A stretch of DNA of 64,000 nt, taken from the NCBI GenBank assembly GCA_951406725.2, contig OX597820.1, forward strand, positions 110,050,001-110,114,000, given 5' to 3'. This stretch comes from Octopus vulgaris. Its lineage: Eukaryota. Under the pieces are notes generated by a model. It saw nothing but the letters and a program-made list of their open reading frames with translations. It was not told the origin of the DNA and made no database searches. Numbering within the stretch: position 1 is the stretch's first letter; every line of letters starts with the position of its first letter. Positions 10,056 through 11,880 of this stretch are shown one piece after another. A program made the translations under genes and the position numbers.

Positions 10056-11880
10056 TGTGCGTTCGAGGGCCTTTGCGCTCGCGCGCCTTTGCGCTCGCGC
10101 GCCTTGGCGCGCGCTGGGGGCTCGGTCGGCCCCTTTGGGCTTGCGTTGTACTGCTTGTGCGTTGTGTGCGTGAGCGCGCTTCGTGTGTGTGGGCTTGCTT
10201 CGGATGTGCGCATGCGTATGTTTGCATACATACCCACACACTCGCATGCATCCCTACCCACATACATACACGCACACCTACTCACACACACACATACACA
10301 CACACATACCCGCACACACACACACATACATACATACACACACATACCCACTTCAGACATACACACACACAGACATACACCCATACACTCACACTCACAC
10401 GCATACACACACACACATACACATGCACACGTACACATACACACACACACACACCTACATACATACATTACACTTGTATACACACACACTTACATTCATA
10501 CACACACACCTACACAGCCATACCCTCACTCAGACACACACATCTACCTACACACACACACAAACACACACTGACACACACCCATACTTACATACATCTA
10601 CACACTCACGCCTACACACATACATACACACATACATAAACACACACTTACACATACACACACATACGCACACACGCATATACTTATACACATGCACACA
10701 CACACACATACATACACACACACATACATACACACACGCATACATACACCCATACACATACATGCATCCTACACACACATACATACACACTCACACATAC
10801 ATACACACACACGCACTCACTCACACACCTGCATGTTCGCGCACACACATGCACATACACACACTTCCCCACACCCACACGTACATACATACACACTCAT
10901 ACACATACACACACACACACACACGGACATACATCTATGCACACACATACATACACACATACTCACATACATTCATCGGACACACTGCCACCCAGACAGA
11001 CACACTCACACATCCACACACACACATACGTACGCGCACACTCGCAGGCGCGCGCACACACGCGCTTGCACCGGTTCGCGCACGCATGCGCGCCGCATGC
11101 ACCTCGCCCTTGGACCCGACGAGACCTCCCGCCCGTTCCTGGGATGTCGCTTGTCGTTGGGTTTTCCCACGCCCGTCTCCGCGGGACCACTCTTCCATCT
11201 TCCCCTCCGCTGGAGTCCTTTTCCTTAACCCCCCCCTTTTTCGTTACACACACGCGCACACATATACACACATTGCTTAAACATATACATTACTCTTACA
11301 CACATTCAATCTACTCGCCATTAATACTACCAAGACACTGGACACACACACACACTACTACCCAACACACGCTGGCACGCTACATACGCCCCCACCCCTT
11401 CCCCTCCCTCCCTTCCTCCTTCCTCCCTTTTCTTACTACTGACCTTTGTCTGCTATGCTGCTGCTATGCTGACCACCGTCTCGCCCTACCTCACACGCAC
11501 ACACTAACACATACATATATTTTTTGTTTTTTTATCTCGCCTCACACACACACATACACACACGCACACGCACACACTCACACATACACACACATCTGTT
11601 GCGTTACCAACCTTGTCTCCACCCTTTTGCCTTTAAAAACCCACTTTGCTCTTGTTATCGTAAACATCCGCCTTTCACCATGTGTAACTCCTAACACCAG
11701 TCGTTTTTTTCTCTATCTCCGTGGCCCGCTCTGGGATCTTTCTTTCCTCTCTCTTCCTTCTTTATGTTTCCGACGAAGAGCTCCGCTCGAAACGTCATAC
11801 CTCCCTGCTTCCATTTCCTGAGCGCCTATTAATAATAATACTGTAATTGTTCCTTTGTTGTTGTTTTTTGTTTCCCGTTT
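10056..11880 (+). mobile_element. Non-coding CA-rich element ending in a PLE-type hammerhead-like tail, with two A-depleted, G-rich patches
   Basis: Bounded by (TA)n on both sides. Hammerhead-like motif at 11766-11800; the tail resembles 34400-34590. Confidence 0.6.
11766..11800 (+). ncRNA. Minimal hammerhead-like motif (U4C variant, imperfect stem I)
   Basis: gttt-CCGACGA-a-GAGC-tcc-GCTC-GAAA-cg-TC-atac, with palindromic ACGT in place of stem III. Confidence 0.55.

Follow-up and report, generated by a model that had tools for sequence, protein, structure and literature searches.

An adenosine-poor predicted long-range stem within the 3′ UTR of a young Penelope-like retroelement of Octopus vulgaris

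The 64,000-nucleotide stretch of Octopus vulgaris DNA analysed here (the window) carries, at 10039–11880 on the plus strand, a 5′-truncated copy of a Penelope-like retroelement (PLE) that consists of the 3′ untranslated region (UTR) and pseudo-LTR (pLTR) only and does not contain the open reading frame (ORF) for reverse transcriptase (RT) and endonuclease (EN). The plus strand is the RNA (sense) strand of the element. The copy lies between two (TA)n tracts, at its 5′ junction (8900–10038) and at its 3′ junction (11880–12741), and 24 of the 26 3′ ends identified among 29 loci of the family adjoin a TA repeat. In these two tracts and a third at 14870–16370, nearly all interruptions on the plus strand are G, with a GC skew of 0.9–1.0 and a TA-to-TG polarity in all three. 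An inverted repeat found by eye (approximately 12744–13100 against 13680–14010) flanks a minus-strand GIY-YIG-like ORF at 13057–13695, and the interval 12744–14010 looks like another Penelope-like insertion. Upstream, 5058–8820 holds a broken LINE-like element with what we take, from the translations, to be a CCCH-finger-like ORF1 followed by endonuclease and RT pieces; a related 3′ piece lies on the minus strand at about 14300–14860. Translations suggest further GIY-YIG or PLE fragments, and part of a mariner-like transposase, at 2397–3122 (minus), 16401–17284 (plus) and 21532–21906 (minus).

Full units of about 6.2 kb, with an ORF encoding RT and, C-terminally, a GIY-YIG domain and with tandem pLTRs, occur at three loci (L075, L076 and L084). 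In the unit, a C-rich ORF is followed by a CA/CATA-rich 3′ UTR of about 3 kb that contains exactly two G-rich islands, and then by a hammerhead-like core. Across twenty 10-kb loci the 5′ ends vary and the 3′ end is fixed, and in 3 of the 20 the 3′ part is repeated upstream of the ORF as a partial tandem. The ORF shows, in order, the motifs DKG, GVAMG, YIDD, FLD and IYC..YVG, together with a CX2-5CxxC linker between RT and EN (of the form CX4CxxC, CSRSRCNTC at position 581 of 713 amino acids) and a CCHH motif (CIKCNLC within the GIY-YIG core, EH...HF downstream). Matches to RVT_1 (E = 0.0018) and GIY-YIG (E = 0.01) in full copies are both below the Pfam cut-offs, and two ORF pieces gave no Pfam match at E ≤ 0.001. 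According to the passages of Craig et al. [quoted passage not shown] Because the ORF domains, motifs, pLTR tandems and (TA)n 3′ ends match that description, we class the element as an EN+ PLE of the Neptune/Nematis type; the narrower Neptune-type label rests on the linker and the target preference and not on an RT phylogeny with reference clades. Open frames reach about 1,008 amino acids, several of them at 98–99% identity (150 scored EN matches), which makes this a very young family that is probably active, and the element fits a young Neptune-type PLE inserted in (TA)n.

The segment at 11764–11794 (plus strand), a putative minimal hammerhead-like core of the pLTR, is common to sister families and has 13,566 matches genome-wide at up to one mismatch (control, 0). 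Its stem II is short, its first box departs from the consensus, Rfam returned no hammerhead match and, folded in isolation, the segment does not form a hammerhead. Most of the core matches that we viewed are solo 3′ ends of about 250 nt that belong to a sister family and lie in (TA)n (L126–L154).

In the second G-rich island, a sequence-only reading had counted 19 adenosines over 180 nt (11041–11220), 12 of them after C, 7 after G and none after T or A, and had proposed a double-stranded RNA (dsRNA) segment partly edited by ADAR. A direct recount (A 19, C 76, G 47, T 38) reproduced these figures exactly, and the motifs TGGAC, TGGGAT, CGGGAC and TGGAGT are all present. TA plus AA dinucleotides number 0 against 5.9 expected (P(0) = 5.1 × 10−4; 100,000 mononucleotide shuffles), and the zero has P = 0.003 under the neighbour rates of the element's ORF. 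The longest TA/AA-free run on the plus strand is 11033–11226 (194 nt with 21 A); the remaining plus-strand runs of at least 90 nt contain 1 and 3 A. None of 48 composition-matched background intervals has one or fewer TA+AA, the 48 being non-independent and those with the lowest counts coming from the element's own loci. The A-neighbour signal is real despite the post hoc choice of 11041–11220. The proposed order of C over G among the neighbours is unsupported, because 12:7 simply matches the C:G content (76:47); across both arms of the stem described below the comparison gives p = 0.49–0.83.

The same reading took the G residues for edits of this copy. In the assembly searched (2.80 Gb, 227 contigs) the family is high-copy, with 1,479 first-look candidates for the 3′ 660 nt and 851 for the patch, and 39 of 39 other scored patch matches are 99% identical to it. 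A purine-collapsed 23-mer of the patch has 434 matches (control, 1), and among the matches listed 99 of 100 are all-G, the remaining one having a single G>A; a 14-mer has 609 matches (control, 1). The G residues are thus carried by at least 434–609 genomic copies. In 72 deduplicated copies, the G columns of the patch hold 3,374 G and 13 A in 3,426 cells. At the copy's G columns, 21 copies of a subfamily that is 84–92.5% identical, and that takes a basal position in a tree with sister families as the root (L235 left out, its anchor missing), have G in 941 of 987 cells. The patch is covered by contigs from DNA runs of two organisms without any G>A row, in a table that also missed the known A/G difference at 11070; the X10 contigs, whose RNA origin is a guess, have no A>G row in a table that is weak for the same reason, and those of X21 do not reach the patch. 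All of this read evidence consists of unstranded contigs, none recorded as RNA.

The patch is therefore a family-wide genomic sequence of the PLE 3′ UTR and not the edit of a single copy, and its loss of A is ancestral. Because the paralogues and the basal subfamily carry the same G residues, the copy at 10039–11880 is not an edited retrocopy; the paralogue, subfamily and 23-mer counts rule out copy-specific editing and assembly error alike. The literal proposal, in which this copy is a retrocopy edited in part and its paralogues are unedited, or in which the G calls are assembly errors, has the A-neighbour pattern in its favour and all of these counts, with the DNA runs of two organisms, against it, and we give it practically no credence.

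Individual positions and searches for a progenitor point the same way. At 11070 the copy has A where the family has G (20 of the 21 basal copies included), a CpG-type G>A decay and the sole difference between this copy and the majority within the patch. The A of TGGGAT at 11144, an unpaired column, had been read as a late A spared in an edited TAAAAT, and is instead derived, as 20 of 21 basal copies have G there. At 11088, A in 21 of 21 basal copies has become G in the young subfamily, a master-lineage change in UpA context that turns a U-A pair into U·G; it is the single clearly ADAR-type event caught within patch 2. A search for a TAAAAT-type, A-reverted progenitor gave 4 matches against 4 in the control, one of the 4 coming from a family copy that carries a single G>A; this weak test, constructed from the young form, had little chance of revealing a founder event, since basal copies vary inside the motif. 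An A/G-collapsed alignment yielded no unedited homologue for the unique part of the patch (11101–11225; z ≤ 1.5 in 22 of 22 comparisons).

The two G-rich islands are antiparallel-complementary from end to end over about 140 pairs. Patch 1 (10039–10225, plus strand) would form the 5′ arm, whose outer 60 nt or so are lost here by the 5′ truncation and present in other copies; patch 2 (11034–11220, plus strand), with ends close to those of the TA/AA-free run, would form the 3′ arm; and the CA/CATA filler between them (10226–11033, plus strand; about 0.8 kb in this copy and about 1.5 kb in full ones, and 41% A and 5% G in L076) would be looped out. The young duplex has a predicted energy of −202.4 kcal/mol against −139.8 ± 7.1 in shuffles, and the basal form −201.4 against −136.3 ± 8.8, with 0 of 120 shuffles as stable in either case; a gap-penalised pairing alignment scores 89 against 41 ± 7 (0 of 400 shuffles). 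Of the 138 pairs in the young duplex, 96 are G-C, 23 A-U and 19 G·U; its unpaired nucleotides are mostly pyrimidines (95 of 111), almost every mismatch sets a pyrimidine against a pyrimidine, and its helices do not exceed 13 bp. In the copy of the window, 10065–10211 pairs with 11034–11220 through 116 pairs (−158.7 kcal/mol). The sense duplex is more stable than the antisense one (−205 against −167).

Folding of larger and smaller units qualifies this picture. The minimum free energy (MFE) structure of the whole UTR keeps just 43–49 pairs that span more than 1,400 nt, that of the window copy pairs patch 1 in another register, and 11 of 20 basal upstream stretches are without patch 1. Patch 2 alone folds on itself modestly (z = −2.1, 6 of 200 shuffles, and z = −1.5; −3.3 in the basal L216), its internal pairing of G with C is not above shuffles, and RNAalifold of the patch alone found a two-sided change in 0 of 45 pairs; we rejected local self-folding as an explanation on the modest z and shuffle-level G-C pairing. 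A tRNA or SINE origin of patch 1 was rejected as well (ARAGORN, 0 genes in three loci; Rfam, nothing near the cut-off), and a PDB sequence search gave 0 matches. From the computed pairing we conclude that patch 2 is the predicted 3′ arm of an imperfect antiparallel duplex of about 140 bp with patch 1, and that the element's 3′ UTR very probably contains a dsRNA substrate, which supports the dsRNA part of the sequence-only reading. Two further family copies elsewhere (L009 and L013; G000:C18:45026065-45029900) stand head-to-head in inverted orientation 3 kb apart, a potential source of long dsRNA.

Changes along the lineage bear on whether the stem was maintained. From the deepest to the youngest of four subfamily levels, 14 of 139 pairs changed and 11 of these stayed paired: 6 wobbles became G-C by U>C, 2 U-A became U·G, 1 U-A became C-G and 2 G-C became G·U. 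Three of the 14 lie at the uncertain loop end, as does the only clean two-sided change, and the sequences compared are also those from which the structure was inferred. Paired columns changed less often than unpaired ones (16 of 278 against 12 of 84, p = 0.018), and U>C was more frequent at G·U than at A-U (6 of 23 against 1 of 25, p = 0.044). Two sister families (L223 and L226) have an A-U-rich hairpin of about 50 bp formed from an inverted TG island at UTR positions of about 780–1070, which is possibly an early state or an analogue of the stem; no comparable stem was seen in four other sister families.

The context of the missing adenosines argues for ADAR. In the two arms of a basal copy, A makes up 2 of 44 purines after U or A against 29 of 107 after C or G (p = 0.0015), and in a young copy 2 of 40 against 25 of 107 (p = 0.009). 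This depletion, which is measured on surviving A and not on aligned converted sites, persists after correction for the element's background TpA bias (p = 0.002–0.023) and under a null that preserves the pairing pattern (p = 0.001 and 0.005). Because ApU is not depleted (9 against 6.9 expected; 7 against 5.8 expected), the loss is not simple avoidance of weak stacks. In pyrimidine content the arms do not stand out from the rest of the UTR; what flips is the A:G split alone. In the passages of an Alu analysis (PMC3091650), ADAR favours upstream U most and upstream G least, and octopus has among the highest editing levels in Metazoa according to the passages of Porath et al. 2017 (PMC5625713). 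Of the neighbour order that had been read into the patch, the loss after U or A therefore stands in both arms (p = 0.0015–0.023), whereas the sparing of A after G, a hallmark of the editing motif, is not significant (p = 0.38 and 0.064); TGGAC, set against the TGAAC of a sister family, would itself be a change after G.

Comparisons across copies and families are less favourable. The 5′ third of patch 2 resembles CA filler with A>G changes, and its 5′ half, aligned to sister CA filler, gives 12–20 A>G against 0–1 G>A (flanking controls, 1–6 A>G). These counts are ambiguous, because positional homology to the sisters ranks first in only 2 of 6 cases with collapsed scoring and 1 of 6 with symmetric scoring, and they may merely reflect G-rich against G-poor CA repeats. 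Editing does not appear to be continuing: private A>G changes in the arms (3 of 2,261, against 10 of 14,982 outside; p = 0.24) are not above T>C, no copy among 104 has more than 3 A>G, and no sense-strand excess of A>G over T>C was found among copies. Most G residues sit in G-C pairs, where any edit would need later compensation.

The origin of the A-poor state lies on the long stem branch of the family (0.57 substitutions per site), and we tentatively favour, at somewhat short of even confidence, a selected long-range 3′ UTR stem that lost its editable A stepwise through ADAR pressure and that U>C changes hardened. The stem would have originated when A-rich UTR sequence was copied in inverted orientation, and would have been kept by selection in the RNA intermediate. 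Adenosines in ADAR-favoured contexts, after U or A, would then have been lost stepwise across many master generations, either as A-to-I changes copied as G by the element's RT or through selection against editable A, and the resulting G·U wobbles would have been hardened to G-C by U>C. The product would be an 'editing-exhausted' duplex of short helices, a poor target for ADAR or Dicer, whose structure may serve RT recognition or RNA stability. That ADAR shaped the lineage in some form, one-off founder editing included, is plausible at slightly better than even; the more specific account, in which reverse transcription carried host ADAR edits of the element's own UTR stem into germline DNA, where they built up along the master lineage and were inherited as an editing-exhausted duplex in hundreds of copies of an active family, is rather unlikely. 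What survives of the editing idea, which fails at the level of the copy, is its dsRNA and its U/A-context loss, as a putative inherited process of the lineage.

The same stem could have lost its A without ADAR, through selection for helix stability, a pyrimidine-biased sense strand and generic avoidance of TpA in GC-rich, YR-alternating sequence, and this we consider a serious possibility. Hardening by U>C dominates the changes in the lineage (6 A>G against 16 T>C on the master lineage over 840 nt), the copies have no A>G excess, a 5′-G effect is not significant, TpA observed/expected is already 0.68 in the ORF, and the sister hairpins retain TpA (9 TA to 12 TG, and 7 to 14). It is less able to account for a TA+AA depletion that survives background and structure-aware correction while ApU is undepleted, or for arms in which U stays at 20–30% and A falls to 4–13%. 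A single hyper-edited RNA that was reverse-transcribed and founded the whole family, as one event on the stem branch, would explain why A is scarce in both arms, with limits that fall at the ends of the duplex, and why basal copies are already G-rich, and the passages of a review on A-to-G clusters in retroviral inverted repeats supply a precedent (PMC12925331). Setting all G to A, however, abolishes all structure in the patch (MFE 0), which together with the 96 G-C pairs among 138 means that most G residues are not simple edits of A-U pairs; G is about 90% of arm-1 purines against about 50% in the precedent, and 11088 shows stepwise change within the family, so that a founder event of this kind seems improbable. 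Still less probable, although compatible with the stem, is that the patch acts chiefly as an internal Pol II promoter of the pLTR, of the CpG-island type, and drives the downstream tandem unit. The patch has 68% GC, a CpG observed/expected of 1.26 and one each of NRF1-like and GC-box motifs (P = 0.02–0.08). It lies inside the 5′ pLTR of L075 and L076, and pLTR promoters are described for Penelope and Chlamys in the passages of PMC8557442; but the 5′ pLTR of L084 is without the patch, patch 1 has no GC-box, and neither the complementarity to patch 1 nor the strand-specific loss of A would be explained.

If ADAR shaped the stem, the family holds a genomic record of RNA editing, returned to DNA and propagated by a retroelement that is active, in a cephalopod lineage that edits heavily, and RNA editing would act as a mutagen with heritable effects on a non-viral genome element. 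The laddered series of subfamilies allows the path from A-U through G·U to G-C to be followed. Even without ADAR, a selected stem of about 140 bp would be a concrete candidate for a cis-element of Penelope-like retrotransposition, and A-poor, G-rich islands in repeats need comparison with paralogues before they are labelled edited copies. Our literature searches returned no title or abstract that describes a comparable long-range stem in PLEs or inherited ADAR edits in PLEs, which is no proof of absence, and the passages of 10.64898/2026.07.22.740005 do not mention octopus.

The element resembles the Neptune/Nematis-type PLEs in the passages of PMC8557442 in its RT and GIY-YIG, linker, CCHH and DKG motifs, pLTR tandems, microsatellite bias and hammerhead-like motif, and differs from them, as described there, in a CA-rich 3′ UTR of about 3 kb closed by an A-purged stem of about 140 bp. 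With ADAR hyper-edited repeats, as presented in passages of PMC5625713 and PMC3091650, it shares a dsRNA substrate, predicted in its case, and loss on the upstream U/A side; those edits are at the RNA level and not inherited, whereas depletion of upstream G in the octopus element is not significant. Avian retroviral RAV and ALV carry A-to-G clusters in the LTR or inverted-repeat region that the passages of a review attribute to ADAR (PMC12925331), a similar A-to-G-type signature in a retroelement inverted-repeat region. There, individual clones have a known unedited parent and about 50% of A changed; in the octopus PLE the condition is fixed throughout an active family and compensated by U>C, and no parent was found. 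LTR retrotransposons edited by APOBEC at the DNA level likewise store a deaminase footprint in genomic retroelement copies, as G-to-A in single copies against an unedited consensus in the passages of Knisbacher and Levanon (PMC4866542). When we applied their consensus filter, the patch failed, as the consensus itself has G, which places it outside the class of hyperedited retrocopies. The patch behaves in the manner of deaminase-marked retroelements and of retroviral inverted repeats with hypermutation, without belonging to their class.
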